Sequence record: PZ347661.1
DNA: 64,000 nt
Direction: 5' to 3' (one strand)
Source of the DNA: a phage
Of the stretch, positions 4,610 through 53,354 are shown piece by piece. The translations under genes were made by a program, and so were the position numbers. The first letter of the stretch is position 1, and each line of letters opens with the position of its first letter. The notes under the pieces are model-generated. The model ran no database searches. It saw nothing but the letters and a program-made list of their open reading frames with translations, and was not told the DNA's origin.

Positions 4610-4682
4610 GTAGCTGCCTAAATAGCCCAACATAGTTGGGCTATTTGTGAAGAAACTAACTCAACCTCACATAGGAACCATC

Positions 4683-12706: not shown

Positions 12707-12740
12707 ATAGCCTCACTTATAATAAAGTGAGGCTATCTTT
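12707..12740 (+). terminator. stem-loop terminator candidate
   Basis: 12-bp stem ATAGCCTCACTT / AAGTGAGGCTAT with 6-nt loop, then CTTT. Confidence 0.5.
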
Positions 12741-28685: not shown

Positions 28686-28710
28686 AAGCCCCTCATTAGA
28701 GGGGCTTTTT
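28686..28710. terminator. bidirectional rho-independent terminator between convergent genes
   Basis: AAGCCCCTC-atta-GAGGGGCTT with T-run on + strand and A-run upstream, so a U-run on - strand; lies between + gene end 28679 and - gene end 28714. Confidence 0.7.
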
Positions 28711-28713
28711 CAT

Positions 28714-31700
28714 TTAGTTAGTGAGGTTGAGCCAAGGGTTCAGGTTATGAGCACGTAAGCCTTGACCGAAACCGAAGGAGTAACCAAGGTTGCCTTGTGC
28801 AGCAATGCTAAAGATGTTGTCCTGAATAGGCAGGCCAACGTTACCAAACATAGTAGGAGTTGGAGCCAGCATAGCCATAGCAGCATGTACAGGGTTGTTA
28901 CGAATCATGGACACTGCAACTTTTGCGGAACGAATCTTAAAGTTGTAGAACCACATAAGACCAACGCTTTCCATATAACCACGGAAGCGTCCTGGCAAAC
29001 GGTCATAGTTAATGAACTCTTCCGTCACACGTCCAAGTGCTTCTTCACGGGTTTTACCTTTACGCTTAGTCAGTTCATCATAGATGATCGCTTTAGCAAT
29101 AAAGTCAGAGTACTCAACCGTCTTCTGGATACCCTGGAAGAGAGCAGTATCCTTAGTGATAAGTGCATAACGACCTGCATTGCGTACAGACTTAGGCAGC
29201 TTATCAGCCAGCTTATCCATGTATTCGTGGAGTTTGCCCTCAGTAATCAGGATGTCATCACGTCCAATACCAGCATCTGCAATTGAGGAGAACTCACCTG
29301 CTTCTAGCAGAGGCCAGATACTCAAACGCTTATGACTATCCGTGATGGACTGAATCTCAGCTTTCAACTTACGAATCTGGTTCGGGTTAGTAGCTGCACG
29401 TAATTCTGCTTCTGCATCTACCTGACGTAAACGAGATTTCAGATACTGGTTAATCTCAGCAGTCTTCTGTGGAATGCTCTTAGCAATGTTCTTAACGGGT
29501 ACACCACGAGCAACCATCTGATAAAGGTTAGCCAGGAAGTTAACAGCAGGTACGACTACTGACTTAACTACAATCAGAGTCTTAGCTTCTTTAACTAAGT
29601 TTTGAACCAGGTTCTCACCACCCATTACATACTTGTAGGCACGGTTGCCGAATACACCCAACATAGCCTTCTTGAAGGTATCCAGCGTTTCTGGGGACCA
29701 ACGAGAATTACCAGACCAGGCATCACCAACGGAAGCTGCACGATAACCAAGAGCATCATTAAGCATGTCACGACGTACCCACAGCTCACCTGGGCCAAAC
29801 AGACTTTCTGCTTTCTGACGTGTTTCACTGTTCATCAGTTTAAGAGCATCGGCAGTTACTGGGTCCAGTTTAGAACCAAGAAGGTTAACGTACTGAGACT
29901 TATTAGAAGCAGACATCTTAATGTCGTTCTCATACATGCTATACAGATTCTCAATTAGCATATCGTTGAAACGCTGGGCCTTGGCCTCTTCTACCTGACG
30001 ACCACGCCATACACCAATTGCACGAGCAAGATGGTTCTCACCCTCAATGTGCTTCAGCATGTTAGGGTCAATGGATTGCTCATAAGCAACCACATTACCA
30101 TTGGCATCATATACAGGCAGAAGTGGTTCATTACCTCGTTCACCACGAGCCAGTGCTTTGGTGATACGGTCCACGGAAGGCTTGTCAGTAATACGACCTG
30201 CTACCATGGTTCCCATCGTAAAGCCTGTACCAAGGTCTACACCACCAGCAGTATTACGAACGTTCTGTAAGATACCCTGTGAGAATGGAGCCTGTGACTG
30301 TACTGGTGCAAAGTAGTAGCTACGTGCTGGACCACGATTAGCAGAGCTACCCTGATAAGTACCCAGACGTACATAAGACTTCTCAATCAAATCAGCAAAT
30401 TGATTATCTTCAGCAACAATCAGGTTAACACCTTGTTTGTTCTCACCAGGGATATACCCTTTGTACTGGTTCAAGGTTGCACGCGAATCAGACTTGGCTT
30501 TAGCCATTTCATCCTTACGTTGACCAACCAGGTAAGAAGTAGCAAAGTCCATACCTTCAATTTCTGTCTGAGCCAGTAAAGATAACATCTCACGGTCAGA
30601 TTTATTCATTGCTTCCAGTGCATACAGGGTAATGAGTTTATCCAGTTGAGCTACATCAACAACAGAGCGTGTAGTCTTACGCTCACCCAGCAAGCGTGAA
30701 ATTGCAGTAGCATTACGCAACAAGTTATTTCCGACTGTACCATTAATCATGTACTGAGCCAGTTGCTTAGATTTACGGCTAATCAGATGCCAGTTACGTC
30801 CTGCTTGTTTCTGCAAATCTGCTTCCAGTTTATTAACCTCACGGTCAACAATCTTCTGGTCAGACAACAGGTCACGAATTTCAGCCAGAGACATAGTGTC
30901 ACGCAGGACAGCTAAGTCAGTTTTACCCATACCGGTATGCATTGCTTTCCACTCAACATTAGTCAGCTTACGGCTGAACTTAGATGCGATAGTGGTAGGC
31001 AGGTGTTCACGGAACTGTTGACGGTCAGCCTGTACCTGTGCACGTACTGCTTTAATCAAATCATATACAGAAGCATTACTCTTAGTACGACCGATTATGT
31101 CATTAACCAGGTCATGGAACGGTTGCCATACTTTACCCTGGTTCATTGCAGCCATAACACCTTCAGCTACGATTGAACCATTCTTCTCTGTAGCAATAGC
31201 AGCTACCAGTTGTGCAGCATGAGCAGCACCTTTAACCAATGGGTTCTTGGTATTAGCTGCAACTTCACGAGCACCTTCCAAAGCACGGGTAGACAGTACA
31301 TCAATAGAATCCACCAGATACTGGTTAGCACGGTCAATAGCATTACCGGTAGGAGTAGCAACGGAATCATAGAAGGACTCTGCATTAAGACTGGTCTGCA
31401 TAATTGTCTGAGCTAGTGCATCCATACCTTCTTGTACGTTAGTGGCTTTAGTATCGCCTGCTACACGGGCATTCAGACTAGCCATTGCAGCAGTACCGAT
31501 GTTAGTCAGCATTGCATCAACAGTATTGCCTGACTTCTTATCTGCTTTCATAACAGGAATATCAGCCAGTACTTTACGTACCTCTTCACTTACCATTGCC
31601 AGACCAACAAAGGTAGGCAGCAAGGAAGAACGACCCTGTGCATCAAACTCAATGTTGTTAGCACCCATGATGGTATCGAACTTCTGCTGTGCATAGTAAC

Positions 31701-34700
31701 GGTCAGCAGGGTTAGTACTATCTGGGTCAGCCATGAACGATTCAACAGTTAGGTTCTTAGTAACGTGTGTGTAGTATTCCTGTGCACGAGCCATGGCAGC
31801 TGGGTTAATAGCAGCCTCGGTAGCCAGTGCAGCAACAATGTTAGTGAAGAGACGCTGTTCCTGCATATTCATGGTGAAGCCATGAGCCTGAACATCACGA
31901 GTTACTTTAGTTGCATTCACTACTGCATCAGAGAACTTACCTTTACGAATTACTTGCTGTACTGGTTCTGAACCAATGTAGTCAGTAATCAGTTTATCGA
32001 AGGTTTTTCCTAACTCTTCCAGACGAGTATTGTTACCGTATGCTTTGTTATGGAACAGGGTAGTGTCCTTAGCTACAGCAGCAGTAGGAGCCTGTCCACG
32101 CATAACTACAGCAGAGTTAAACAGTAAGCCAGAGAACATATCATCTGCATTAGACGGAGCTTTCTTACGTCCAAATACCAGGCGTTTGATTGCTTCATAT
32201 ACAGCCTGAGCCATAGCTTTAAGTGCAGTGGTTTTCTTCTGCTTACCAATCAGTTCACGGTTAGTTAAGCCCCAAGCCATGTACTCATTCAATGCAGCAG
32301 CTTTAGCCATTGCTGGTTCAATGAAGCCATTGGACAAGTGACCATTAATGGTATTCAGTGCATCAGCATATGCTTCACGTACTACCGGAGATTCATCCTT
32401 AACATCCAGAGTACGGAATTGGTTCATCAGGTCTTCAATATTCTGGACAGCTTCATTAGGAGTACCCTCATAGTGAGCCAGTACAGATTCAAAAGTAGAG
32501 GCATGTACTAATTCATGAACCAGAGTCTCTAAGGAAGGGGTAACTAAGTAGATGGTCTTATCTTCAAAGTTAGTCCAGCCATATGCATTACCAGCTTCAG
32601 CAGCTTCAATATCTTCCGGTGCAGGGCGAGTAATATTCTTCTCAATAGCGTAGGCATCCAGTTGAGAAGGTGTACCGTAAACAACCTTATAGTCTTTAGC
32701 AGCAAGAGATTTCTGTATTTCTTTCAATACTGCTTGCTGTTCAGGAGACATCTCTTTAGCCAGCTTAGTGATAGCAGTATTAGACAGCAGACGTACACCA
32801 GACTTCAGTACACGACCTACCTTCTCCATAGCTGGTACAACTTTCACCGGCACTTCCTTCACTGGTTCTGCCTTCGTTGGTTCCGCTTTAGCAGCACGTA
32901 CTGCTTCACGACGCTTGTTTAGTTCAGCATCAAACAGCTCGTTCAGCTTAGCTACTTGCTGGTCTACAGTCAGACCTTCCAGAGAGATTTTACCGTTGTT
33001 CACATAAGGAGCACCTACAGCAGCCATCTGGTCAACAGTGACCTGTACCTGGTCCATTACCTTGTGACGAATATCTACACCCAAAGCAATGTTACGCAGG
33101 TTACGCTCAATCAGTGCAATACCAGAATCTCTAATCATAGAAATTTTATAATCTCTATCACCATCTACTCTGGCAATATGAGCACGTTGCTCAAAGTCTA
33201 AAGCAGACTTTGCAATAGCATCTATTGCTGAATCGGACAGCTTATTTAAATCAACATTCTTAACAAACTTAGAGAAAGACTCATATACATTCTTGATAGG
33301 GTTACCCTGCCAGGAAGTATATACAGCCTCATTAGCTTTACGGCTTGCATCAGTAATGTCATTAATACCAATGTTCATACCATCAAAGATTTTCAGGGTA
33401 TTCTTCGGAGCACCTTTCATAGTAGAAAGAGTCTGCATCATCATGCCATCACCAGTACCGATGGTCATAAATGGAATACCTGCAACACCTGCTTGCGAAG
33501 GAGCATAGATGCTCATTGGCACACGCATACGGTCATCTAAGTTGGTGGCCAGTACTTGGTTAGCAACATCAGTGTTTTCACTACCAGCAATGTAGAAAGT
33601 CTGTGAGCCAGTCTTAATCATTGGAGCCAGTGGTGCTAAGCTATTCTGGATTTCATTCAGTTCTTTCTGTGTTAAGAAATCGCCTTTTTTCCATGTTGGG
33701 TCTTTTTCTTTTTCTGCCAGCTTAGCCTGTACTGCCTGTTGGAACATATCCTGCAATACCAGAGATTGTATCTGAGTAGCCTTCTGCAAGTTCTCAGTAG
33801 AGTGCATCAACCCTTCACCAACAGTAAATCGGATACCTTGTCTCATTGGCTCAACAAAGAAATGCAGCATATTCTCTTGTAAGTTCTTCAGAGCATCCCC
33901 GGATACGGTAAACTCCTGAGGATTTAACTCACCAGTCAGAACACCATCTACTTCCTTAATAAATAACCTACCTTTGCGTTTGGCTGGAATCTTGCCAGTC
34001 AATGCTTCCATAGAAGTAAGGAAGGTATCCAGCATAGCCTGAGCATCAGCTTCAGAAGCAGCCTCCTTACCAAACATCGCCATAGCTGGGGAAATGCTAG
34101 GGTCAGCAGCACGGGCTTTTAGAACGTCGCTTAAGCGTTCATAGATGGCGTCAGTAATTGCACTTACCATCTTGCCTGCAATACCGCGAGCACCAGAACC
34201 ATAAATGGTAATAGTCAGTGGGTTTTTAGCGATACCACGCTTCAGGTCCAGAGTACCATCTTCATTAAGATTGAAGTCTTTGATGAACAGGTCCATTAAC
34301 TTCTGGAGATGGTCCATCTGATTTATAATAGGAATATTTTTGCTGTAAGTATTGCGTAGTTCATTCAGATGGAATTGCAGACTATTGGTAGATGCTTCAT
34401 ACAGGTCAACATTATCATCCTGAGTATGATGCTCATTCATAGTCTTACCGGCTTTACCGAAGAACAAACCACCTTTAGCAGTATTCTTAATCCAGTTTGG
34501 GGTGAACTTACCACCAGTCATTAATACCATTGCGTTGATTGGCCCGTTGGTTACACCATCGGCTTCAACGTACAGTGGGGTATTAAAGTTGGCTCGGTCA
34601 TCACTGTTAAGGTAACGGGCATATTCCATAAGAGCCATGAGAGCTACAAATGATTTATCATTACCCAGAGATGTTCTCAGGATATCCACTGCGTCAGCAG

Positions 34701-37700
34701 GCAAGTATCCAGACTTATCAAACTCAACCATCATATCTACAGCAGGCTTCAGTTTACCTTCCAGAGCCTTGGTAAGTTCTTCTGACATAGTTTCACGAGT
34801 CATTTTATGAACTTTGATACCCAATGCCTGAGCCAGACCTAACTGGAAGCCAGAGAAGTCTTCATTGTTTTGGTTCGATAAATCCAGAGTAGCTTTAGTA
34901 GGTAAGATAGCCTCACGAACCAGCTTAGCTGATTGAGGATTGTATTTGCCCAACATCTGCATACGACCAACACGGGTCATATTGTAAGCATAGTGAATAG
35001 GTACAGAAGAAATGTCTTCACTCTGTGCTCTCACCTGTTCAATAACAGAGAACAGTTGGTTGTAAGAATCTTCTACAGAACGATTCTTACCTTCCAGAGA
35101 TTTAGCATGGTTCTTATTAAGTAAATCCTTATCCAGAGTACCTGCACCCATCAGTTCAAGGATACGGTCTTTACCTAATGCTTCATAGAACTGAACCATT
35201 GGAGTATGTACAAAGAACTCAGTAGCCTGTTCTGCTTTAAGAGCAGCTTTCTGTTCTGGAGTATTACGGACAGCAGGGTTACGTAACTGAGTAGGAGCCA
35301 CTGAAGGAATATCATCACCCAGGTACAATTTCTCTTCTGGTTCTACGAGGACAGCTTCCTCGATAGCAGTAGGGAATTTGTTAATGGCATCGTTATCATC
35401 CAGTTTCTCAATGGTATACAGACCAATAGTCTTATTAGATTCTGGGTCAATTTCAGACACATCAAGCATAGACTCTTTAACTTCACCCATCTCAATGAGA
35501 GAAGACAGAATCTCTGTAGCCATTGCCATTGGAATACCTTTGGTATAACCCAATGGTGCATCAGCATTACGATTAAGTCCCCAATAAGATTCAATCTTTT
35601 GAGCCAGTGAGTTAGTAGCTTCTACTAAGGTTTGTGCATTCTCAAATTCTGCGAGGATGCCCTCTGGTAACAAGGAAGCATTTACACCAGTAATTGCAGC
35701 CACATCCTGCATGTCTTTAATAGCAGCATTCTGTGTAGCAGTAAGTCGCCATTGCAGACCAGCAAGTACAGCAGTCTCTAATAACTGGTCATTGAACTTA
35801 AAGGTATCACCATCTTTCTCTACGATGTTAAGCAGTTTGCCACCTACCCAACGGTTAGCCTCAGTACCCTCTGCAAAACGTTTACCAACATTCTTGTTAG
35901 CAAGGAACTTAGCCAGACGATCAGACAGAGTAGTCTTCAGAGTTTCACCAAAATCAAATAAGTCCTGGTAACGCTTAATCACATCACTTGTGAGAGCGTT
36001 ATTTTCTCTTTGAGTGAATGCTTCAAAACGAGCAGCAGAAGACAATGCTTTCTTAACATCAGTCAAAGGAGATTCAGAACCAATGGTACGAGACTTAGGT
36101 TCTTCTGGAAGAGAAAATGCTTTAAGGAACTGGTTCGGTGTCTTGTCGTTGTTATAGACAGGGAACACTGTTTCTATTCCCGATAGAGGTTTACCGCCAA
36201 CGGTATAGTCTGCTTTCAGTTGAGCCAGTGATACTTCTTCCTTCTCGACGTTATTGGTATTAAGCCCAGATGTATCTACACCAATCTGAATCAGTGCATT
36301 GTTTGCTTCTACGAATGATTGAACAGTATTAAATTGTTCCGGGGTCAGCTTCTGGTTATCAAACAGTTGCAAAGATACAAATGGTTGTTCACTACCTTTG
36401 TAGAAGGTAGAGCGAATAGCACCAGTATCTAAAGACATATCACGATAACCATCATGACCAAATACATCAGACAGACTGATATGGTCACCATTAGAACCAA
36501 CAACAGTACCATCAGCAAAGAGCCATGGACTTTCCCTACGGTCACCATACTTATTAAGAGTATCTTGTGAAATAGTATTCTCTTTCACATAAGAATCTCT
36601 TTCAGATTCAGTAGGCTGTTCAACGGTATCCTGTTTTTCAGACTGGTTCTCAGGTTCTTTTACAGTCTGTGGTTTAGACTCTTTATTAGTAGGTTCTGTT
36701 TTAACAGCTTCACTAACAGAGGGTTTAGTCTGTACAGTAGGGGTAACTGGTTCCTGTTTCGTAACAGGAGTTTCATCAACCTGATTCACTGGTTCATTGG
36801 TCTGTTGGGATTGAGCAGCATCAAGATTGCCCTGACGGAACTCTTTAACTACCTGGGCAGCAGGCTTGTCCAGACGTGAATCCAATGGGGTAACTTTCAC
36901 ATGAGAAACATTAAGCTCCGGGTAAGCCGTAGCAAGTGCGTTAGCAATATCAGCTACGGTCTTGGCTTCCAGTCCTACTTGCTGGGCAAACTTAACAGAC
37001 TTGGTATCATACGGATTGACACCGAGGCCAGTACGACTACGTACCCATTCACGCGAGGGAGTAAGAGCCTGATAATGGACAGACTTATTCTTATCCGCAT
37101 TCCCAGAAATCAGATGCTCATTCAACGCTCCGACCTTATTCTGCATGTGCTGGGCGAACTTCATAAAGTCGTCGAGATAAGCGGAAGCCAAATCGAAGTT
37201 ACCAGAGTTGTACGCAGAACGAATGCGTTTAGCATGTTGCAACGCAGAGTACTGGCCTTCATTAGAACGAGATTCGTCGGTTTTAATTTGTTTACTAACA
37301 ATGTCTTGAGGACGTAAGCCTAGTTCTTCTGCTTTAGCGTCAAATTCTCGTGCTCCTTGCAATAGAGCAGCAGCAGATTGCAGGGCAGCACGCTGACGAT
37401 TCCCCAGTGTAATCTTACCTTCACTCGCATGTTTCAGAACCATGTTCACTGAATCTGCATCCAGTACTTCTGGAGACACATCAGCAGCCATAGCAATATT
37501 GTTTGCCTGGGCTTGGTTAGCTTCTTCAGTAGCTTTCAGTTTACCTGCTTCAGCCTGTTCCTGAATCATGGAATGAATGGCACGGAATGCACGGAGTACT
37601 TTCGGTGTATTCTGAACATTAGCCATCAGGCCGGAGAACTGGTCAACGATATTAGCAGCAGGAGAACCCTGTTCCAGATTAGCTAATGCACCTGGGTCAC

Positions 37701-39531
37701 GGTTAATGAAGCTATCCATAGACATGATGTTGTCATACATCTGGATTGCAGCTTCCATTTGAACGTTAGGGTCTTCAGCAGTATTAACCAGGTCAGCCAT
37801 CTTCTGAATAGCTTCAACACGGTTAGTGGAACCAGAAACAGCTTCACGGATTGCAGGACTAGCTTGTTCCAGTTCTACTGGGTCAAACTTCATTGCCTGA
37901 GTTAAGTCAGCAGCATACTGAGTAGCAGCAGCTTTCTCTTCAGGAGAAATATCCATTGCATCTACTGCTTCCTGAACAGTTGCTTGTGCTTGTTCTGCCT
38001 GAGCAGTAGCTTCCTGTGCAGCAGCGTTAACTGTAGCATCTGATACAGGGGATGCTTGTTCATTACGCTTAGCAACTTCTTCTCCACGTTGAACCAGAAT
38101 GTTAGTAATAGGTGAAGCTACTTTTGCTAATGCCTTACCAGCCAGAGAAGCACCAGCCAAGGTAGTACGTACAGCAGGACCAACGGCAGCACCAGCAGCC
38201 TTAACAGTTGCACCAGGAGCTTGAGCAACTCCAGCAGAACCGAAGCCGTACAGTGCACCCAGACCTGCTTGCTCACCAACACCTTTGAGGATGTCACGAG
38301 ATGCATCAACATTACCTTGGATTGCCTTGTTCTGTGCAAACTGACTTGTACCAGACTGGATACCTTCTTCTACAGTCTCACGCAGCATGTTGGAACCAGC
38401 ACCAGCCAGTGAACCTACCTTAAGTGGATTAAGTTCAAACTTGGATACCAATGGAGCAGTAAGAGCAGCAACTGGAGCAGTTAAACCAGCAGCAGTGATA
38501 CCTGTTTCAGATGCAGTCTGACGTCGTGCCTCTTCAGGAGTTAAGCCGTCTTTAATGTGTTGTTGGTATACAGGAGATTTAGCAGCCAGTTCACTGAATG
38601 GCATTTCCATAATTTCATTGGCAGTCTGTTGATATGCACCACCAGCTTCCATACCACCAATTGCTATAGCAGGTGCAGCAATACGACCAGCAGTCTGTGC
38701 AATCCGTGCAGGACGTGAACCTAACTCAGCAGCTAAGGTAATACCCTTAACAGCTTTGTCCCCACCTACCATTACTTTACCAAGTGCGGATACACCACGG
38801 ATAAGTGGACCACCAGTGAAGAGAGAACCAACGCCTTCAGCCAGACCATCTGTAGCAGCCATGCCATTGGACAAGGTATTAGCAACAGAATCATAAGCAT
38901 CCCGACCAATTCGAGACAGAGAAGCAACGAGTTCACTTTCTCCTTTAGCAATATCCTGCTTATAGAGTTTCTCATTTTCCTGTGCAGATATTACGTTCTG
39001 GTTCTGTACTACATTACGACGAGCATTCAGTGCATCAGACTGTAGGTTGTGTACACCTTTATTCAACCAGTCAAGACCGGAAGCAATGGATGCCCCGGCA
39101 TTATCATTGACCAAGCCTGTGCCAAGAGCAGCAATGCCCCCAAGGGTATTAGCAACACCAAGACCAACACCAGAAAGGGTATCACCAAGTGCTTCACCAT
39201 ATGTGCGACTCTTAGTTAAATCACGACGAACAGCATTAGCTGCATTGACACGAGCATTGAGAATGTCCATTCCTTGCTCATTGCCATACTTGTTTACGAT
39301 TTCAAGAGGGGAGGCATTAGTAAAATCTGCCTGAATAGAACCTGGGTCAAATGCACCAGCACCTAAGTCACCGGCACGTCCTGCCTGTAATTGGTAAGCG
39401 TTCTGAGAAGTTAATTGGAAAGGGTTTTGCCCTTGTTCAGCTTGTTTCCGAGAGGTTGCAGTAGAGACATCGACTTGCTTAGCAGTAGTGATGCTGTCTG
39501 CGAAACCTGCCAGACGGTCAAATGTTGACAT
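28714..39531 (-). CDS. virion-encapsidated RNA polymerase (N4 vRNAP-like giant protein)
   Basis: About 3600-aa ORF at the head of the late block; central region has single-subunit RNAP-like motifs (VEADGVTNG, KNPLTITIYGSGARG, KIFDGMN); ATG at 39531 with AGGA RBS, alternative TTG at 39549. Confidence 0.85.
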   Translation of the reverse strand: MSTFDRLAGFADSITTAKQVDVSTATSRKQAEQGQNPFQLTSQNAYQLQAGRAGDLGAGAFDPGSIQADFTNASPLEIVNKYGNEQGMDILNARVNAANAVRRDLTKSRTYGEALGDTLSGVGLGVANTLGGIAALGTGLVNDNAGASIASGLDWLNKGVHNLQSDALNARRNVVQNQNVISAQENEKLYKQDIAKGESELVASLSRIGRDAYDSVANTLSNGMAATDGLAEGVGSLFTGGPLIRGVSALGKVMVGGDKAVKGITLAAELGSRPARIAQTAGRIAAPAIAIGGMEAGGAYQQTANEIMEMPFSELAAKSPVYQQHIKDGLTPEEARRQTASETGITAAGLTAPVAALTAPLVSKFELNPLKVGSLAGAGSNMLRETVEEGIQSGTSQFAQNKAIQGNVDASRDILKGVGEQAGLGALYGFGSAGVAQAPGATVKAAGAAVGPAVRTTLAGASLAGKALAKVASPITNILVQRGEEVAKRNEQASPVSDATVNAAAQEATAQAEQAQATVQEAVDAMDISPEEKAAATQYAADLTQAMKFDPVELEQASPAIREAVSGSTNRVEAIQKMADLVNTAEDPNVQMEAAIQMYDNIMSMDSFINRDPGALANLEQGSPAANIVDQFSGLMANVQNTPKVLRAFRAIHSMIQEQAEAGKLKATEEANQAQANNIAMAADVSPEVLDADSVNMVLKHASEGKITLGNRQRAALQSAAALLQGAREFDAKAEELGLRPQDIVSKQIKTDESRSNEGQYSALQHAKRIRSAYNSGNFDLASAYLDDFMKFAQHMQNKVGALNEHLISGNADKNKSVHYQALTPSREWVRSRTGLGVNPYDTKSVKFAQQVGLEAKTVADIANALATAYPELNVSHVKVTPLDSRLDKPAAQVVKEFRQGNLDAAQSQQTNEPVNQVDETPVTKQEPVTPTVQTKPSVSEAVKTEPTNKESKPQTVKEPENQSEKQDTVEQPTESERDSYVKENTISQDTLNKYGDRRESPWLFADGTVVGSNGDHISLSDVFGHDGYRDMSLDTGAIRSTFYKGSEQPFVSLQLFDNQKLTPEQFNTVQSFVEANNALIQIGVDTSGLNTNNVEKEEVSLAQLKADYTVGGKPLSGIETVFPVYNNDKTPNQFLKAFSLPEEPKSRTIGSESPLTDVKKALSSAARFEAFTQRENNALTSDVIKRYQDLFDFGETLKTTLSDRLAKFLANKNVGKRFAEGTEANRWVGGKLLNIVEKDGDTFKFNDQLLETAVLAGLQWRLTATQNAAIKDMQDVAAITGVNASLLPEGILAEFENAQTLVEATNSLAQKIESYWGLNRNADAPLGYTKGIPMAMATEILSSLIEMGEVKESMLDVSEIDPESNKTIGLYTIEKLDDNDAINKFPTAIEEAVLVEPEEKLYLGDDIPSVAPTQLRNPAVRNTPEQKAALKAEQATEFFVHTPMVQFYEALGKDRILELMGAGTLDKDLLNKNHAKSLEGKNRSVEDSYNQLFSVIEQVRAQSEDISSVPIHYAYNMTRVGRMQMLGKYNPQSAKLVREAILPTKATLDLSNQNNEDFSGFQLGLAQALGIKVHKMTRETMSEELTKALEGKLKPAVDMMVEFDKSGYLPADAVDILRTSLGNDKSFVALMALMEYARYLNSDDRANFNTPLYVEADGVTNGPINAMVLMTGGKFTPNWIKNTAKGGLFFGKAGKTMNEHHTQDDNVDLYEASTNSLQFHLNELRNTYSKNIPIINQMDHLQKLMDLFIKDFNLNEDGTLDLKRGIAKNPLTITIYGSGARGIAGKMVSAITDAIYERLSDVLKARAADPSISPAMAMFGKEAASEADAQAMLDTFLTSMEALTGKIPAKRKGRLFIKEVDGVLTGELNPQEFTVSGDALKNLQENMLHFFVEPMRQGIRFTVGEGLMHSTENLQKATQIQSLVLQDMFQQAVQAKLAEKEKDPTWKKGDFLTQKELNEIQNSLAPLAPMIKTGSQTFYIAGSENTDVANQVLATNLDDRMRVPMSIYAPSQAGVAGIPFMTIGTGDGMMMQTLSTMKGAPKNTLKIFDGMNIGINDITDASRKANEAVYTSWQGNPIKNVYESFSKFVKNVDLNKLSDSAIDAIAKSALDFEQRAHIARVDGDRDYKISMIRDSGIALIERNLRNIALGVDIRHKVMDQVQVTVDQMAAVGAPYVNNGKISLEGLTVDQQVAKLNELFDAELNKRREAVRAAKAEPTKAEPVKEVPVKVVPAMEKVGRVLKSGVRLLSNTAITKLAKEMSPEQQAVLKEIQKSLAAKDYKVVYGTPSQLDAYAIEKNITRPAPEDIEAAEAGNAYGWTNFEDKTIYLVTPSLETLVHELVHASTFESVLAHYEGTPNEAVQNIEDLMNQFRTLDVKDESPVVREAYADALNTINGHLSNGFIEPAMAKAAALNEYMAWGLTNRELIGKQKKTTALKAMAQAVYEAIKRLVFGRKKAPSNADDMFSGLLFNSAVVMRGQAPTAAVAKDTTLFHNKAYGNNTRLEELGKTFDKLITDYIGSEPVQQVIRKGKFSDAVVNATKVTRDVQAHGFTMNMQEQRLFTNIVAALATEAAINPAAMARAQEYYTHVTKNLTVESFMADPDSTNPADRYYAQQKFDTIMGANNIEFDAQGRSSLLPTFVGLAMVSEEVRKVLADIPVMKADKKSGNTVDAMLTNIGTAAMASLNARVAGDTKATNVQEGMDALAQTIMQTSLNAESFYDSVATPTGNAIDRANQYLVDSIDVLSTRALEGAREVAANTKNPLVKGAAHAAQLVAAIATEKNGSIVAEGVMAAMNQGKVWQPFHDLVNDIIGRTKSNASVYDLIKAVRAQVQADRQQFREHLPTTIASKFSRKLTNVEWKAMHTGMGKTDLAVLRDTMSLAEIRDLLSDQKIVDREVNKLEADLQKQAGRNWHLISRKSKQLAQYMINGTVGNNLLRNATAISRLLGERKTTRSVVDVAQLDKLITLYALEAMNKSDREMLSLLAQTEIEGMDFATSYLVGQRKDEMAKAKSDSRATLNQYKGYIPGENKQGVNLIVAEDNQFADLIEKSYVRLGTYQGSSANRGPARSYYFAPVQSQAPFSQGILQNVRNTAGGVDLGTGFTMGTMVAGRITDKPSVDRITKALARGERGNEPLLPVYDANGNVVAYEQSIDPNMLKHIEGENHLARAIGVWRGRQVEEAKAQRFNDMLIENLYSMYENDIKMSASNKSQYVNLLGSKLDPVTADALKLMNSETRQKAESLFGPGELWVRRDMLNDALGYRAASVGDAWSGNSRWSPETLDTFKKAMLGVFGNRAYKYVMGGENLVQNLVKEAKTLIVVKSVVVPAVNFLANLYQMVARGVPVKNIAKSIPQKTAEINQYLKSRLRQVDAEAELRAATNPNQIRKLKAEIQSITDSHKRLSIWPLLEAGEFSSIADAGIGRDDILITEGKLHEYMDKLADKLPKSVRNAGRYALITKDTALFQGIQKTVEYSDFIAKAIIYDELTKRKGKTREEALGRVTEEFINYDRLPGRFRGYMESVGLMWFYNFKIRSAKVAVSMIRNNPVHAAMAMLAPTPTMFGNVGLPIQDNIFSIAAQGNLGYSFGFGQGLRAHNLNPWLNLTN

Positions 39532-39597
39532 AGCATGATTCCTGTTCAAACTTATATCGTATAAGAAGATTCACTGTACAGTAAGTGAATGTAAGAG

Positions 39598-39617
39598 AAA
39601 AGCCCCGGATGGGGCTT
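39598..39617 (-). terminator. intra-operon stem-loop (attenuator/terminator candidate)
   Basis: AAAGCCCC-ggat-GGGGCTTT palindrome between the 648-aa gene and the vRNAP gene; T-rich on the - strand downstream. Confidence 0.45.
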
Positions 39618-39634
39618 TATTAGTATGTAAGATT

Positions 39635-41581
39635 TTATCGAGGTTGCATATAGGGAGGTAAACCCTCTGCTAATTTTAGGTAACGTTTAGCACGTTCTTC
39701 ATCTTCACGACTACGTTCACGCTCTACTGAAGCATTAGAACGGAAGTTCTGTGGAACCAGGTTTCCTTGGTCAGCCACTACAGTATTGACAGCAGCATCT
39801 AGTGCAGCCCGTGCTCTTGCTAACTCAGCTTCACGAGCAGGGATAGTAGCAGCAAGCCCACTTTGCCCAGCAGCTACACGACGACGAGTATCAGCAAGTA
39901 AGGCTTCTGCTTGTGTTACCTGGTTCTGGGCATTAGCAATATTACCCTGTACCTGGGTAAGAACATTATCACGAGCAGTAGCTTCAATACCTTCCCCACG
40001 TCGTACCGAACGTGCCAGTTCTCTGGCAACGGTATCGTCAATACGAATTCCATTACCACCTTCCGGTGATTTCCCTGGTGTAAGCGCATCCCAGGTACGA
40101 CCGAGGATACCTTCCGGTACGTTGGTAATAGACTGCTTAAGAATCTCAGCAGCTACAGCAGGAGACTGTCCGGATTCCTGCATAACTTTATTCAGTCGAG
40201 CTATCATCCATCCTTTCTCAGAACCTTTGAAAGCATCCTTAAGAAGACGGTCTGCCACTTCACCAATGGTAGAATTATCACGCAATGCACGAGCATAGTT
40301 AGCAGTAATGGTTCCAGTATTATCTTCCGACTGACGTGCAGCAACTGTATTGCCTGCCATGTTTGAAACTACTTGCTGGGTCTGTAGCTGGTCAATAGGT
40401 GCACCTACTTCTGCCTGTGCAATTAACTGACGTGCTTCACTCCATGGCATGTCCTTATAACCACCCACACCCAAGTCAGGCAATGCTGCCCAAGTCTTGG
40501 AAAGGTTACCATTCTTACGGTCATTGAAGATTGCTTCAGCTATTTTGTCCTGTACTTCAGGAGTCATTTGCTGATTACGCCAACCTGAACCAAGTACTTT
40601 GGGGGCATAGTCTTCCAGAGTAGCTTTATTAATCTGGAATGCACCTACAGGAGAATGACCTTGTGATGGGTTATTAATCATAGTTTGCTGATGATTAGTA
40701 ACCTCTCCCAGTGTCATCTCGGTAATAGGCTTATCAGTAGCAGCAAAGGTATATGTTGCATCATAAGGGGAACCAGAACGAGTACCAGCAGTTCCTGGAG
40801 CAGAGCCAGAAGAAGACGTAGCATAAGTACCAGGGAATCTCTGGTTCACACCTCGCATGATTGCAGCACGTACACCAGGAGAAGCATTCTGCATAGCAGA
40901 CTCTGCCAGTGTAAGAGCATCCATAGGTGTGGAAGCACTACGGAAAATATCAGTCAGTATACCGGATGCAGCTTGCGAATCAGCATCATTACGCTGAGCC
41001 ACACCCAAATCAAAGCGGTTCTGTGCTTGGTTAATAGCCTGACCACCCTGACCTTGAAGACGACTCAGCATATCCAGTTGTTGGTCAGCAGGAAGTGCAG
41101 ACAGTGCCTCACGAGTCTGATTCAATGCAGCATTAACACGGTTCTGGTCACCAGACTGATAAGCCTCAGATAATAAACGGATAGCTGGGGATGCATTATC
41201 TAATGCAGAATCAGTATTCTGTAAACGATCAAAACGATATGCATTGTAATCATTAATTCCCTGCTGACCTTGTTGAGTCAGAAGAGTACCTGCTCGCTCA
41301 TCCAGATTCTGGAGGGTATGTTGGTTTACCAGTGATGGGTCAACTCCCTGGAACAATGCACCAGATGCCAAAGCATTGCGATACTCAGTAGGGTCTTGAT
41401 ACTGCATAGCATTCATCATGACGGCATTGCCAGCCTCCTGCTTGGCAGCGTTCTGGAAGTTACCCAGTGCATCACTTAAGCCGGAGGTGGCGTTACCAAT
41501 CATGCTTCCAAATGTGCGAATGCTGTCACCAACTCCAGAAAAGTTAGGTGCATCAACATTACGCCATGTAATCTGAGCCAT
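39635..41581 (-). CDS. virion internal protein (gp51-like position)
   Basis: 648-aa Q/N/A-rich ORF immediately upstream of vRNAP in the late operon. Confidence 0.45.
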   Translation of the reverse strand: MAQITWRNVDAPNFSGVGDSIRTFGSMIGNATSGLSDALGNFQNAAKQEAGNAVMMNAMQYQDPTEYRNALASGALFQGVDPSLVNQHTLQNLDERAGTLLTQQGQQGINDYNAYRFDRLQNTDSALDNASPAIRLLSEAYQSGDQNRVNAALNQTREALSALPADQQLDMLSRLQGQGGQAINQAQNRFDLGVAQRNDADSQAASGILTDIFRSASTPMDALTLAESAMQNASPGVRAAIMRGVNQRFPGTYATSSSGSAPGTAGTRSGSPYDATYTFAATDKPITEMTLGEVTNHQQTMINNPSQGHSPVGAFQINKATLEDYAPKVLGSGWRNQQMTPEVQDKIAEAIFNDRKNGNLSKTWAALPDLGVGGYKDMPWSEARQLIAQAEVGAPIDQLQTQQVVSNMAGNTVAARQSEDNTGTITANYARALRDNSTIGEVADRLLKDAFKGSEKGWMIARLNKVMQESGQSPAVAAEILKQSITNVPEGILGRTWDALTPGKSPEGGNGIRIDDTVARELARSVRRGEGIEATARDNVLTQVQGNIANAQNQVTQAEALLADTRRRVAAGQSGLAATIPAREAELARARAALDAAVNTVVADQGNLVPQNFRSNASVERERSREDEERAKRYLKLAEGLPPYMQPR

Positions 41582-42050: not shown

Positions 42051-44693
42051 TTAAACTAAGTCAGTATTAAGGGTCATGTCAGAGTAGTTACCTATCATGT
42101 CTAAAGACAGGTCGGCTATATCTGAACCAGTCATGAGAGTACGTGATAAGAATGAATCCAGTGACTCCATTGACACGAATTGCATTGGGTCAATTACACC
42201 CTGTCCAGCAGTACCAAACATTTCTTCATACTGCTTATTGATTTCCATCATATCAGTATTGTACTGCTGCATTACTTTCTCTGCTTTCTGAATAGTAGCA
42301 GCCGTAGATGCATTAATATACTGGCTAATACCATTACCTACTGAACTGGTAAGCTGCATGATGTTTTGGGCATTCATCATTTCACTTGCCAGAGCAGACA
42401 GAGATGTACCAGTAGACATAGCAGTACCAACATTCATAGCTACCATCGAAGCAACGGCTGCAATGATAAAGCCCAGTTTGTCTCCGAACAGTGCAGCAGA
42501 TACTTTAGTGATAATGGATACCAGAATCATTCCAGCAATAGCGTTTGCTACAGCACCGACTATCACAGCAGCTAATCCAACAAAACCCAGAGATGCACCA
42601 ACTGCACCATATGCACCAAGTATACCTGCACCACCAGCACCAGCTGTAAATACAGAGATAACCACAGCGACCACTACAACAACAATCTTAAATGCCCCAG
42701 TCTGATACCACTTCTGCTTAACCTTCTTATATGAGTTCATCACTAAGTAGGAGCAGGCAGTAGATAACTGAGTACTTCGAACTAGTGACATGGAACGATA
42801 GATGTTGGTGTGCAGTGGGATAATGAACCCACTCTCTTCTGCATCACCCATTGCTTCGGCTACATCAATGTGCACTGACTTATTTTTGTATACCCTGTTA
42901 TTGTGGTTTAGGCCCAGTACCCTGAGTTTACGGTAAGTGTCATTACCATCCTGCCAGAGTAACTCATACTCCTGCATAGAGTAGAATGTAGTGGTAACTT
43001 CCAGTTTGTTGTTAGTACCAGTGCGTATGTTCTTACGAGTAAGAGTTATATCCCCTGCATATCTGGATCGAAGTTGCCCTTGCTTAGCACCAGACCATGC
43101 TTGCCCCGAATGAGTAGTTTCAGATACATAGTTCCAGCCAATAGTCATGTCGTACTTGTACTGCTTATTGCTATGTACCCTAAACTCTCGCTTAGGTATA
43201 ACTGGGTATTCCGGCAGTGGAGGAGGTGTTCCAACAATCTGACCTTCCTGCCTGTTCCACCATTCTACATATGCATCAACTGCATCATTAGCTGCCTGAT
43301 AACCTGCAATTACTGCTTCCAAAGTCGGGTAGGTTGGGTCAGGTGGGAATGCTTCAGTAGCCATCTGAAAGAAACGATAGATATATTCCTTAGCAGTGTC
43401 TTCTGGAGTATTAAGAGATACACCGAATGTGCCGTAAATGTACTGAATATCTCCTATGTCATCATTCTTCTTAAGCTCTGTCACCACCTTATCAATTTTC
43501 CCACCAGTAGCTTTATAAAGAGCTTTCTTACAGTGTGGGTAGATTGAGTCATTCTCTACCCATTGCTTGTCATTCCTGATTGGAATGAATGGATAGAATC
43601 GGTTATCAGTAGCTTCGGTATTAAACAGTGAATCTAGTGCAACATTACCAGAGTTTTGCTTATAGATAAGCAATTTAGGTGTACCAACAGCAGTCATCTC
43701 AGTATCTGTACGGGTAGTCTGGGATGAGTACTTACGAACCAGTGTCTCTGTGGTTGTAGTAATTGTGTCAGTACGTGTAACACCACCACCTATATCAACT
43801 ACATTGGTAGTTACAGTAGTACTGGATTGAACCTCACCAAACTTTTTGTGGGTCATTACTCTGTCAGATACAACTACAGTCACATCATCAGGTTTCTCTG
43901 TAAATCCTCTACGATAAACCTTAACGTAAGAATTCCAGTTATCCACACTTGGTTCAGTGACAGTACTATCTTCATCCGGTCTGCCATCAGAGTAGACAGA
44001 ATGAGTATGTGTAGTCTTAGTAAGATTAGTTGTATTAGCTGTTGTATCACTTGATACAGTAGTCCATAACAAAGTGGAGGGTAAGTCACCCTCATTGTCA
44101 TAGACAGTAGTCGGCCCTACTACCGGAGGATTAGTATTAGGGGACTTGTAAAATGAGTAATAAGCATAGAGATATAAAGCACCTGGTTCAAAGTTAGTAG
44201 GTGTGAATTTAATAGTGGAACCTCCATCTAAGGAGGTCATAGTAATTTCATTGGTATCTTCATCAATATCTATGTCGAATCGTTCCATGATTCGACTTGG
44301 AGCATTCTCATAAAGATACTGGTCACACCATTGTTCAAAGTCAGCAAAGCCAATCTCTGCTGCCTGAACATAGACAGACTCTCCAGTAGGAGGTGTAATT
44401 TGACCCTCTATAACAGTAGGGTCAATCTTAGCCAACACACCTAATGAAGAACCAGCCATACCAACTTTTGAATCATAGTGATTCTTACTCCAGCTGGAGA
44501 ACAGTCGCATACGAATACCCGGCCCATTCAGATAACTATCAGAGATAGTGTCTGCCATAGTGAATCCTGTATTGGAAACAATGTTACCAATGACCACAGT
44601 TTTCATATAGTTAGGACGTTTATGTATATCCCCTGCCATGTTATAGACAGAGGATGCTACGTATACTTTGGTCTTCCCACTGAATAAGCCCAT
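42051..44693 (-). CDS. large virion protein with Gly/Ala-rich multi-helix hydrophobic segment (gp53-like position)
   Basis: 880 aa; C-terminal about 120 residues of GxxxG/AxxxA-rich hydrophobic sequence. Confidence 0.45.
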   Translation of the reverse strand: MGLFSGKTKVYVASSVYNMAGDIHKRPNYMKTVVIGNIVSNTGFTMADTISDSYLNGPGIRMRLFSSWSKNHYDSKVGMAGSSLGVLAKIDPTVIEGQITPPTGESVYVQAAEIGFADFEQWCDQYLYENAPSRIMERFDIDIDEDTNEITMTSLDGGSTIKFTPTNFEPGALYLYAYYSFYKSPNTNPPVVGPTTVYDNEGDLPSTLLWTTVSSDTTANTTNLTKTTHTHSVYSDGRPDEDSTVTEPSVDNWNSYVKVYRRGFTEKPDDVTVVVSDRVMTHKKFGEVQSSTTVTTNVVDIGGGVTRTDTITTTTETLVRKYSSQTTRTDTEMTAVGTPKLLIYKQNSGNVALDSLFNTEATDNRFYPFIPIRNDKQWVENDSIYPHCKKALYKATGGKIDKVVTELKKNDDIGDIQYIYGTFGVSLNTPEDTAKEYIYRFFQMATEAFPPDPTYPTLEAVIAGYQAANDAVDAYVEWWNRQEGQIVGTPPPLPEYPVIPKREFRVHSNKQYKYDMTIGWNYVSETTHSGQAWSGAKQGQLRSRYAGDITLTRKNIRTGTNNKLEVTTTFYSMQEYELLWQDGNDTYRKLRVLGLNHNNRVYKNKSVHIDVAEAMGDAEESGFIIPLHTNIYRSMSLVRSTQLSTACSYLVMNSYKKVKQKWYQTGAFKIVVVVVAVVISVFTAGAGGAGILGAYGAVGASLGFVGLAAVIVGAVANAIAGMILVSIITKVSAALFGDKLGFIIAAVASMVAMNVGTAMSTGTSLSALASEMMNAQNIMQLTSSVGNGISQYINASTAATIQKAEKVMQQYNTDMMEINKQYEEMFGTAGQGVIDPMQFVSMESLDSFLSRTLMTGSDIADLSLDMIGNYSDMTLNTDLV

Positions 44694-45537: not shown

Positions 45538-45607
45538 TCCTCTTGGTTCAAAAAGAAACGGCCCACGGAGTTACCCCAGTGAGCCGTGTTGAACTGTAGC
45601 TTATACG

Positions 45608-46276: not shown

Positions 46277-46296
46277 AGGGGGACTTATGTCCCCCT
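46277..46296 (-). terminator. stem-loop downstream of capsid gene (attenuator candidate)
   Basis: AGGGGGAC-ttat-GTCCCCCT GC-rich hairpin in the 67-nt gap after the major capsid gene. Confidence 0.4.
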
Positions 46297-46313: not shown

Positions 46314-47516
46314 TTACAGAGGAGCAACAGTCTTAATCAGAGCCAGACGTTCTGGGCGTTTAACCAGGATACCATAGTACCACTTGATAGAACTGAAGCC
46401 AGTTTCACCATACGGGTCATTACGGTCAGCAGTTTCTTTACCAGGCATCTTAGTCATGATGGTGAACTTAACAGACTTACCATCAGTCTGGAAGCCAATG
46501 GTAGAGAAGGAGTCATCACCAACTACCAGCATTGGGAATACGTCGTAGTGCTCCTGACCAGATACCATAGAAGTACGGTAACCCGGGTTAGTAGTAACCT
46601 GAGCACCAGCACCTGCCCAATGCAGCATCTCAGGAACCTGAATGATACGGAACTTATCAATACAACCGATTTCACCATTCATCAGAGTACCAGCATCAGC
46701 ATAGTGCTGAACTTCGATGAATGCTTTATTACCGAACAGGTCTTTCATCGCTTTCAGTTCTGGAACCAGTTCAGAACCAACGTACATTACACGAGTACCA
46801 CCAAGTACTTTGGTATCTGTCAGTTTAGAACCAGTGATGATAGTAGTCTGGGTCGGAGTACGGTTCTCAGTAAGAATCTGGTCAAGACGCATCAGGTTCT
46901 TATAAGAAACTACAGACGGGGTAGCACCTTCACCTGTGATGGTAGCATCAGAGACAGCAGCACCTGCATACAGTACAGTACCAGCAGCAGCCAGCAGGTC
47001 TTTCTGGAGAACAGCTTCAGTCAACTGCACAGCACCGTTCATCAGTTCACGAGACAGGTGTTCTTTCAGTTGGTCATCAGAATCAAAGTCCAGAGACTCT
47101 TGGGTAAATTCATAGAAGAAACCGAACTTATGAATAGAGCCTTCACGAGCAATACGAGTAAAGCCTACACGGTTAACACGACCACCGTTCTCTGACAGCA
47201 GAGGCAGTTTAGAAGTGATGTTACCTACGTCTTTGGAAGAACCGTACAGGTTACCATTAACGATGGTAGCACCATTAGCATCAATACCCTGGTCGTTAAT
47301 GTTCTTATCGTCGAGCAGAGGAACGTACTCATACACCTTAACAGTCTTACCGTAGTTCTTCGGCATGTTAACGGTGTTAGCCAGAGGCATAAAATACTGG
47401 TCTTTACGGGACTGAATAATAGCCTTCTTCAGCCAGTAATAGGTATTCATCTGGTCGGAACCAGCACCATCAATGCTAGATTTCTGACCGTCAATTGGAG
47501 CGTTATAGTTTAACAT
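46314..47516 (-). CDS. major capsid protein
   Basis: 400 aa, matching N4 gp56 in size and position relative to portal and scaffold-like genes. Confidence 0.65.
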
Positions 47517-51910: not shown

Positions 51911-52526
51911 TACATGCCTCCAGTGGCACATTGCCTATTCGGTTAGCTACCCAACCATACGTAAAGTCTGGCATGTTTAATGAGGTGTAGTGGTTCAGTT
52001 GTTTGGCATCAAGTAACTTAATCATTACCTGACATGCTGCAACTTTGCCTCGTTTTTTCTGCAATGCTTTATATGCATTAACAGTACTTGTACCGACTTT
52101 ACCATCAACCTGTATTTTAGGGTAGTCTTTGCCATTGCGAGACATTTCATTAAGAGATAACTGCAACCATTTAGCAGGACGAGTTACACCAGTGTTAACA
52201 CCAGCATCTACCAGCTTGTGTGTTACAGCAGGAGATATATCAGCGAAGGCTACGAAGTTAGGCTTAAGTACGTAGTCATCAATGTATATCTCAGCAGCCA
52301 TCTCTTTAGATAAACCTTTCATAGAACCATCCCAACCATACTCAGTAGCCAGAACTTCTTTATGAGATTTAGCTACAGATTGGGTAATACCATAATTAGT
52401 TTCCCCACCTGGGTCACGAGGATTGTTTACATATCCCCCTTCCATATAGAACACTGCCCCCAGGATAGCAGCGACAACTCCTCCCACTGCACCACCTTTC
52501 GCAGCAAGTTTCTGTTTAGCTTTCAT
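51891..52526 (-). CDS. GH108-family N-acetylmuramidase endolysin with N-terminal SAR-like segment
   Basis: EGGYVNNPRDPGGETNYGIT motif of the GH108 family; Gly/Ala-rich N-terminal hydrophobic stretch GGAVGGVVAAILGAVFYM. Confidence 0.75.
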   Translation of the reverse strand: MKAKQKLAAKGGAVGGVVAAILGAVFYMEGGYVNNPRDPGGETNYGITQSVAKSHKEVLATEYGWDGSMKGLSKEMAAEIYIDDYVLKPNFVAFADISPAVTHKLVDAGVNTGVTRPAKWLQLSLNEMSRNGKDYPKIQVDGKVGTSTVNAYKALQKKRGKVAACQVMIKLLDAKQLNHYTSLNMPDFTYGWVANRIGNVPLEACNEDANL

Positions 52527-53090: not shown

Positions 53091-53324
53091 AATATTACCG
53101 TAGTTGTGTAGTTAGAATCCCCAATAGGGTCATATCATAAGATGACTCATAGATAATACTTAGTATGATGAGGTACATCCAGACATAGTGTCTGGTATCA
53201 ACACATGGTAGATAGCGTTCAGTTGGGTATGTTTAATATCTCAAGGCAAGTAATTACCTTAACAGCAGTATCAGTTAGGGTAATGCAAACAGTGAACTCT
53301 ATATAAAAAGTATCATTAGTAGGT

Positions 53325-53354
53325 AAAACTAACCCCGCCGAAGCGGGGTTTTTG
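53325..53354. terminator. rho-independent terminator
   Basis: AACCCCGC-cgaa-GCGGGGTT with T-runs on both sides; directly after the 699-aa tailspike gene. Confidence 0.65.

Follow-up and report, generated by a model that had tools for sequence, protein, structure and literature searches.

A probable, leaky Rho-independent terminator, probably followed by a weak late promoter, at the gp51/vRNAP junction of the phage of record PZ347661.1

The gp51/vRNAP junction

The phage sequence record PZ347661.1 was analyzed over a stretch of 64,000 nt, hereafter the window, to which all coordinates refer. In a megablast search with positions 38500-41000, identity is 93-95% with EC1-UPM, St11Ph5, and ECBP1, Escherichia phages that are G7C-like, N4-like phages classified in the genus Gamaleyavirus of the family Schitoviridae. 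Rightward genes occupy positions 1-28679, and a leftward block runs from 61232 to 28714, with the vRNAP gene as the final gene of this late block. In N4, the late genes point leftward and depend for their transcription on the host sigma-70 polymerase, with the phage SSB as activator (PMC4496689). Upstream of vRNAP, a 648-residue ORF (46% identity) is the homologue of N4 gp51, a 66-kDa ejection protein and periplasmic-tunnel protein, and its counterpart in the EC1-UPM record is labelled structural protein. The giant ORF that follows encodes the homologue of N4 gp50, so that the sequence-only reading, which had called the two genes a virion protein and the vRNAP, identified both correctly. The gap of 85 nt that it had placed between them becomes 103 nt from the stop codon of the gp51 homologue (TAA, 39637-39635), the true vRNAP start being the ATG at 39531. 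This ATG has an AGGA 8 nt upstream and opens the conserved N-terminus MSTFDRLAGF, and the same start is annotated in EC1-UPM and N4, while the TTG at 39549 is merely a mechanical ORF start. The features of the junction and of related sites are collected in Table 1.

Table 1. Features of the gp51/vRNAP junction, other late-strand hairpins of the window, and terminators annotated at the same junction in other phages
Feature	Position	Strand	Remarks
Gene of the 648-aa virion/ejection protein, N4 gp51 homologue	39635..41581	-	46% identity, E 4e-179
A-rich spacer AAUCUUACAUACUAAU between stop codon and hairpin	39619..39634	-	
Hairpin	39599..39618	-	5' arm AAAGCCCC 39618-39611, loop AUCC 39610-39607, 3' arm GGGGCUUU 39606-39599; dG -13.1 kcal/mol
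U tract UUUUCUCUU, counted from the GC core	39593..39601	-	7/9 U, break after 4 U
Second inverted repeat (IR2), AUUCACU-UACUGUAC-AGUGAAU	39569..39590	-	dG -5.5 kcal/mol
-10-like box TG-TACAGT, putative late promoter	39573..39580	-	predicted start ~39562-39565
Invariant leader block GATATAAGTTTG, part of a longer conserved sequence, ATA(C)GATATAAGTTTGnAnAGGAA	39547..39558	-	
vRNAP ribosome-binding site and start codon	39529..39543	-	AGGA 39543-39540, ATG 39531-39529
vRNAP gene, N4 gp50 homologue	28714..39531	-	3605 aa, 10.8 kb; similarity to N4 gp50
Hairpin after the 913-aa gene, CCCCUC-UUCG-GAGGGG-UUUU	~55480	late strand	
Hairpin after the 699-aa gene	53331-53350	late strand	
Hairpin after the major capsid gene, AGGGGGAC-AUAA-GUCCCCCU	46277-46296	late strand	-16 kcal/mol, no sense U tract
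Hairpin after gp55	~45553-45590	-	-22 kcal/mol, then UUUCUUUUU
Terminal hairpin after vRNAP, AAGCCCCUC-UAAU-GAGGGGCUU	28686..28707	-	dG -17.8 kcal/mol, T tracts on both strands
Annotated terminator, PhAPEC5 (KF192075)	47020-47043	same as gp51/vRNAP	
Annotated terminator, Piffle (MZ326857)	52265-52289	same as gp51/vRNAP	
Annotated terminator, Pollock (NC_027381)	42518-42534	same as gp51/vRNAP	

An inverted repeat lies in this gap, in non-coding DNA and on the strand of both genes, beginning 16 nt past the TAA and ending 67 nt before the vRNAP ATG. Its plus strand reads AAAGCCCC-GGAT-GGGGCTTT, a perfect 8-bp stem with five G-C pairs and a 4-nt loop, and the minus-strand RNA reads UAA-N16-AAAGCCCC-AUCC-GGGGCUUU-UCUCUUAC, the bases after the 3' arm being UCUCUU. 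The GC-rich hairpin that the sequence-only reading had noticed is real and perfect as a repeat, and only its coordinates, 39598-39617, were one base off, the true ones being 39599-39618. Folded alone, it reaches -13.1 kcal/mol, a stability matched by none of 200 shuffles, and it is kept in both the minimum-energy and the centroid folds when 130 nt upstream or 65 nt downstream are added. A regulated attenuator with an antiterminator fold was rejected, as these folds reveal no conserved competing pairing. An Rfam search of positions 39400-39750, with E values up to 5, returned no match.

Counted from the GC core, the tail after the hairpin is TTTTCTCTT. The minus strand carries a C at 39597 in the window's clade (EC1-UPM, ECBP1, pSb-1) and a T in all other Enquatrovirinae, whose T tract at the equivalent of this position reads TTTTTTCTT and whose U tract, UUUUUUCUU, has six consecutive T. 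Judging from this difference, the U tract of the window's clade is predicted to be somewhat weaker than that of its relatives, and, as C39597 breaks it after four U, read-through is possibly higher in this clade. The hairpin is absent from the list returned by a simple terminator scan of the window, which in our reading reflects a stem extended through A/T pairs and then only four T in the next eight bases. Given the broken U tract and the silent scan, termination efficiency could be low. Terminated RNAs are expected to end at ~39593-39596.

Conservation of the hairpin and its counterparts in the window

The window has 14 perfect hairpins whose stem spans 8 bp or more and includes five or more GC pairs, vs 0.98 ± 1.0 in dinucleotide shuffles, and a chance origin of the junction hairpin is excluded. 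A GC hairpin followed by a T tract is found at the gp51/vRNAP junction of every other N4-like lineage sampled (~20), with LUZ7 as the sole exception, and the stem sequences are unrelated between lineages, structure being kept rather than sequence. Among 14 distinct Enquatrovirinae sequences, the GCCC/GGGC core is kept and is followed by TTTTTT, as compared with TTTTCT in the window's clade, while the loops are ATCC, TACG, TCCG, ATAC, TTCG, or ACTA; the N4 hairpin reads AAAAGCCC-TTCG-GGGCTTTTTTCTC. In other genera, the hairpin and its T tract lie 4-22 nt past the gp51-like stop, and they are present in three Achromobacter lineages, Pseudomonas phage inbricus, Erwinia phage Frozen, P. putida phage Zuri, Stenotrophomonas phage Piffle, Rhizobium phage RHph_X2_28B, and Burkholderia phage HN03. 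They are also present in all eight held-out phages, fetched after the hypothesis was formed (Arace01, PB119, Meara, ZX86, C121, ort11, OLIVR3, and Pollock), and in five more IMG/VR lineages. A pattern scan of IMG/VR also gave unrelated coding matches, judged by their sequence to be photosystem (psbA-like) and other genes, which were discarded. The pairing of the terminator stem was judged from per-sequence folds, two stem variants being one column out of register in the alignment.

GenBank records carry a terminator feature at the same junction in PhAPEC5 (assigned by ARNold), Piffle, and Pollock. These annotations are predictions, and they share position, strand, and anatomy with the window's hairpin, which differs from them by one extra G-C pair, its AUCC loop, and a weaker, broken U tract. 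The PhAPEC5 element, AAAAGCCC-TACG-GGGCTTTTTT, is its direct sequence orthologue. The hairpin is therefore a kind of signal already known and annotated, and involves no new principle. A stable sense-strand stem-loop, a U-rich tract, a location at a gene end, and a structure kept in relatives, which characterize intrinsic terminators, are all found here, and E. coli RNA polymerase terminates at such signals. From this anatomy and conservation we infer that the hairpin terminates transcription in vivo.

The tail also bears on a different role, in which the hairpin would mainly serve as an RNA 3'-end stabilizer or processing site, acting as a shield against 3' exonucleases or as the flank of an RNase E/III cut, with little termination. 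The interrupted U tract and the AU-rich single-stranded box ahead of the stem would suit this role, and the capsid hairpin at 46277-46296, devoid of a sense U tract, means that some hairpins of this genome cannot be classical terminators. However, the hairpin has a T-rich tail behind it in all lineages examined, from the Achromobacter phages to the IMG/VR set and LUZ7 apart, a tail for which a pure stabilizer has no need, and relatives have six consecutive T. With the T tract conserved everywhere, a stabilizer-only role is quite unlikely.

On its other side, the hairpin is preceded by an A-rich spacer that contains, at 39620-39630 on the minus strand, a CATACTAA(T/C)A box kept in Gamaleyavirus and KP8, N4 having CATAATACA. 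Read on the plus strand, the spacer provides the hairpin with the T-rich tail TTTATTAGTAT (TTTTATTAGTAT in relatives), which makes it potentially bidirectional, and the plus-strand RNA folds at -13.6 kcal/mol. A bidirectional terminator, selected to stop antisense rightward transcripts from the vRNAP gene into the structural genes, would account for the symmetric stem, this tail and folding energy, and the conservation of the A-rich box on the sense side; moreover, antisense start and stop sites are mapped within the vRNAP gene of LUZ7, a phage that also has bidirectional terminators. Distant genera, in contrast, have a clearly better T tract on the sense side and often lack the upstream A tract. 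We regard selection against antisense transcripts as unlikely, and it would in any case be compatible with termination on the sense strand.

The small GC-rich stem-loops that act as N4 early promoters also resemble the window's hairpin. The N4 promoter P2 is laid out as a stem, a TCC loop, a stem, and TTTT, to which GCCCC-ATCC-GGGGC-TTTT, on the non-template strand, bears a superficial likeness, and the hairpin could then be a DNA hairpin promoter for vRNAP or for the second polymerase of the phage. The vRNAP promoters combine a stem of 5-7 bp with a loop of 3 nt whose central base, on the template strand, is a purine (PMC3715699); the N4 early promoters, in which this purine is conserved, are active as template-strand DNA at the left genome end, and the window's hairpin has none of these features. 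Its loop is of 4 nt instead of 3, the loops of relatives vary (TACG, TTCG, TCCG, ATAC, ACTA) and are often the classic UUCG tetraloop, and the stems reach 9-12 bp in other genera. Furthermore, it is located in the late region, as opposed to the left genome end where vRNAP promoters reside (PMC4496689; PMC3715699). On account of loop length and loop non-conservation we reject this reading, whose probability is close to nil.

Five other hairpins follow late-strand genes of the window (Table 1), some without a good U tract, and the N4 genome has the same hairpin-punctuated layout. With hairpins after many late genes, the late operon amounts to a series of hairpin-separated units, as demonstrated experimentally for the late units of LUZ7 (PMC9163698). 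The idea of a single late operon, from which the sequence-only reading had started, is thus not borne out, at least five other late-strand hairpins dividing the block. The last of them, downstream of vRNAP, is a bidirectional terminator at the meeting point of the rightward and leftward gene blocks. On the antisense strand, the capsid hairpin is followed by a good T tract, TGTTTTATTT, and it may stabilize the capsid mRNA or terminate antisense transcripts; in N4, a comparable hairpin follows gp56. Outside the late block, two perfect hairpins with 12-bp stems occur on the plus strand at 4620-4646 and 12707-12736, both with the outer arms ATAGCC...GGCTAT, a pattern seen twice vs 0.03 times expected. 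Each lies just past a stop codon of the rightward early/middle region, neither has a T tract, and the polymerases of the phage itself may use them as signals.

A putative late promoter and a second inverted repeat

The ~60 nt past the T tract are as conserved as coding DNA, and between genera the intergenic DNA is 70-81% identical vs 50-74% for the coding flanks. This segment contains the box cTGTACAGT, which resembles an extended -10 element. It starts 23 nt past the GC core of the terminator and ends 41 nt before the vRNAP ATG in the window, and 40-42 nt before it in relatives. Its TA-AGT bases do not vary among 14 distinct relatives, and all four letters occur at the third position. Of the eight held-out phages, five carry a TAnAnT whose end lies 33-42 nt ahead of the ATG, vs 4-9% per sequence in shuffles; the three in which the box was not found, ZX86, ort11, and OLIVR3, all have Rhizobiales hosts.

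Seven of the eight strongest mapped LUZ7 late promoters have a TAnnnT ending 8-9 nt before the start, usually with a TG 0-1 base upstream, for instance cctgTAGACT, ggtgTACACT, and tatgTATATT. The putative promoter cTGTACAGT, invariant at its key positions, fits this type, with no -35 at the site, and the start that it predicts (~39562-39565) would fall where the conserved leader begins. A sigma-70 consensus scan of the gap called no promoter, owing to the lack of a -35 match. In the window, TA.AGT is 4.8 times denser in late-strand intergenic than in coding DNA, and a TAAAGT ~85 nt upstream of gp69 is conserved in N4 and the window. One of the four intergenic TA.AGT sites, however, is located upstream of a terminator, which counts against the promoter reading. 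N4 late promoters were reportedly defined by Cho et al. 1995. Considering its position, its invariance, and its likeness to the LUZ7 elements, we lean towards cTGTACAGT being a dedicated late promoter for vRNAP.

Several other candidates were tried and rejected. TGTAnAGT as a motif repeated in the window is seen 4 times vs 15 expected, which counts against the promoter reading as well, and ATAAGTTTG is not enriched as a repeated motif of the window. Over the whole window and both strands, TGTANAGT is under-represented (4 vs 15.2 ± 3.8 expected), two of its four sites being the palindromic TGTACAGT/ACTGTACA core at 39573-39582. Were TATAAG in the leader the -10 element, just ~12 nt of leader would remain, the ribosome-binding site would stand at its extreme 5' end, and no equivalent is seen at a usable spacing in distant genera. 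The hexamer TATATG, which lies in the final codons of gp51 and was considered as an upstream promoter of the LUZ7 type, misses the final T, and its conservation is explained by Tyr-Met codons.

The promoter box overlaps a second inverted repeat, IR2, the TA-AGT bases lying within its loop and 3' arm. Across the Enquatrovirinae (N4, KP8, and several Gamaleyavirus clades), the pairing of IR2 is kept while its arms change, with loops of 4-8 nt; by clade, the arms are ATTCACT/AGTGAAT, ACTCACT/AGTGAGT, GGCTTACT/AGTAAGTT, GGCTTACT/AGTAAGCT, TCACTA/TAGTGA, TTACACTA/TAGTGTGA, and CACACT/AGTGTG. As the box overlaps IR2, with G-U wobbles on the sense strand, its invariance could be due in part to a constraint on RNA structure. 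An inverted repeat over the -10-like box is also seen in Stenotrophomonas phage C121 and Burkholderia phage HN03. IR2 could act as an RNA operator, mark a processing site, or form a DNA hairpin at a promoter. Further downstream, the leader block GATATAAGTTTG is invariant, and it is, together with the CATACTAA(T/C)A box of the spacer, a non-coding box conserved across three genera. If we assume that these elements work together, the junction would be a three-part control module in which IR2 is the active part, the terminator its insulator, and vRNAP dosage actively regulated: replication or supercoiling might extrude IR2 as a DNA hairpin, in the manner of the N4 early promoters, or alternatively IR2 might be an RNA operator to which a phage protein binds, perhaps vRNAP. 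Such a module strikes us as improbable.

Read-through, vRNAP dosage, and other units of the late block

We consider it quite probable that the gp51/vRNAP junction is a Rho-independent terminator, probably leaky, and probably then a weak late promoter for vRNAP. Upon leaving the gp51-like gene, the host sigma-70 polymerase would produce a nascent RNA that folds into the 8-bp, GC-cored stem-loop ahead of UUUUCUCUU, and part of the elongation complexes would be released at this hairpin. The upstream mRNAs for the ejection and structural proteins would thereby gain a hairpin-protected 3' end, and most transcripts would be spared the 10.8-kb vRNAP gene. The weak extended -10 promoter cTGTACAGT, 23 nt downstream of the terminator, would give vRNAP a start site of its own, so that vRNAP dosage would be the sum of read-through and of initiation at this promoter, and would not be tied to the high expression of the structural genes.

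An experimentally mapped parallel is the orf74/orf73 (vRNAP) junction of LUZ7, which combines a partial stop with a dedicated TG(n)TAnnnT promoter, as proposed here. By ONT-cappable-seq, the 3' end T53 maps 75 nt past the stop of the gp51 homologue, inside vRNAP (75 nt), with a termination efficiency of 0.44 at 20 min, and more than 60% of the LUZ7 terminators are leaky (PMC9163698). The LUZ7 vRNAP has its own strong late promoter, PL18 (gtgtTAGTAT), one of the seven mentioned above, which was validated with a reporter and starts 37 nt upstream of the ATG. The two junctions differ in several aspects: in LUZ7 the two genes overlap, PL18 lies inside the upstream gene, and the promoter precedes the terminator, the opposite of the order proposed for the window. 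In addition, the T53 hairpin has no U tract and is not predicted as intrinsic, and the host is a Pseudomonas. The leaky late terminators of T7 and the stepwise read-through of LUZ7 orf64-69 offer a broader likeness, with hairpins after highly expressed genes, nested transcripts, and a dosage falling downstream (PMC9163698). Unlike in graded-terminator phages such as T7, the late polymerase is here the host sigma-70 enzyme instead of a phage single-subunit enzyme. Searches of the accessible literature returned no transcript data for this phage or its coliphage relatives, and no transcriptome of N4 or a G7C-like coliphage.

In virions, gp51 and gp52 are present in ~12 copies vs 4 ± 1 for vRNAP (PMC13434306; PMC4496689). 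A ratio of 12 gp51 to 4 ± 1 vRNAP fits a step-down in expression at the terminator, although the ratio need not be set there. The strict form of this idea is a pure attenuator, with vRNAP transcribed solely by read-through of a leaky terminator whose efficiency alone would set the vRNAP:gp51 ratio. The anatomy and conservation of the terminator, the copy numbers, and the scan without a canonical -35/-10 promoter agree with it, as does the term operon applied to gp52-gp51-gp50 in the literature (PMC13434306). At the 913-aa/699-aa and gp55/gp54 junctions, the hairpin leaves only ~20-25 nt to the next ATG, so that attenuation by read-through is evidently used in this genome. What stands against the pure attenuator is the DNA beyond the T tract, where 60 nt are conserved like coding DNA and include a -10-like box, invariant and of the LUZ7 type, that recurs equally far from the ATG in held-out phages, together with the strong, validated promoter that vRNAP possesses in LUZ7. 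We therefore find vRNAP transcription by read-through alone rather doubtful. Attenuation ahead of vRNAP, as the sequence-only reading had suggested, agrees with the terminator anatomy, its family-wide position, the 44% stop in LUZ7, and the copy numbers. That read-through alone would control dosage is not the best reading, in view of the own promoter of the LUZ7 vRNAP and of the conserved -10-like box downstream of the terminator.

With a terminator and a promoter at the junction, the gp52-gp51-gp50 ejection-protein operon would be broken by a conserved terminator and would probably restart at a promoter of its own, which matters for annotation. The layout of the junction also bears on the stoichiometry of 12 gp51 to ~4 vRNAP and on constructs that express or delete vRNAP.

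Two other gaps of the late block carry similar elements. Between gp55 and gp54, a TACAGT at 45593-45598 (minus strand) lies 7 nt upstream of the 45553-45590 hairpin, after which ~20 nt are left to the gp54 ATG, a placement that would be odd for a promoter. The non-coding gap of 264 nt at 53091-53354 opens with the terminator at 53331-53350, followed by a TAGAGT at 53301-53296 (minus strand) and, at 53179-53195, by the hairpin CCAGACA-CUA-UGUCUGG with a 7-bp stem and a 3-nt loop. This gap is likely a late promoter region.
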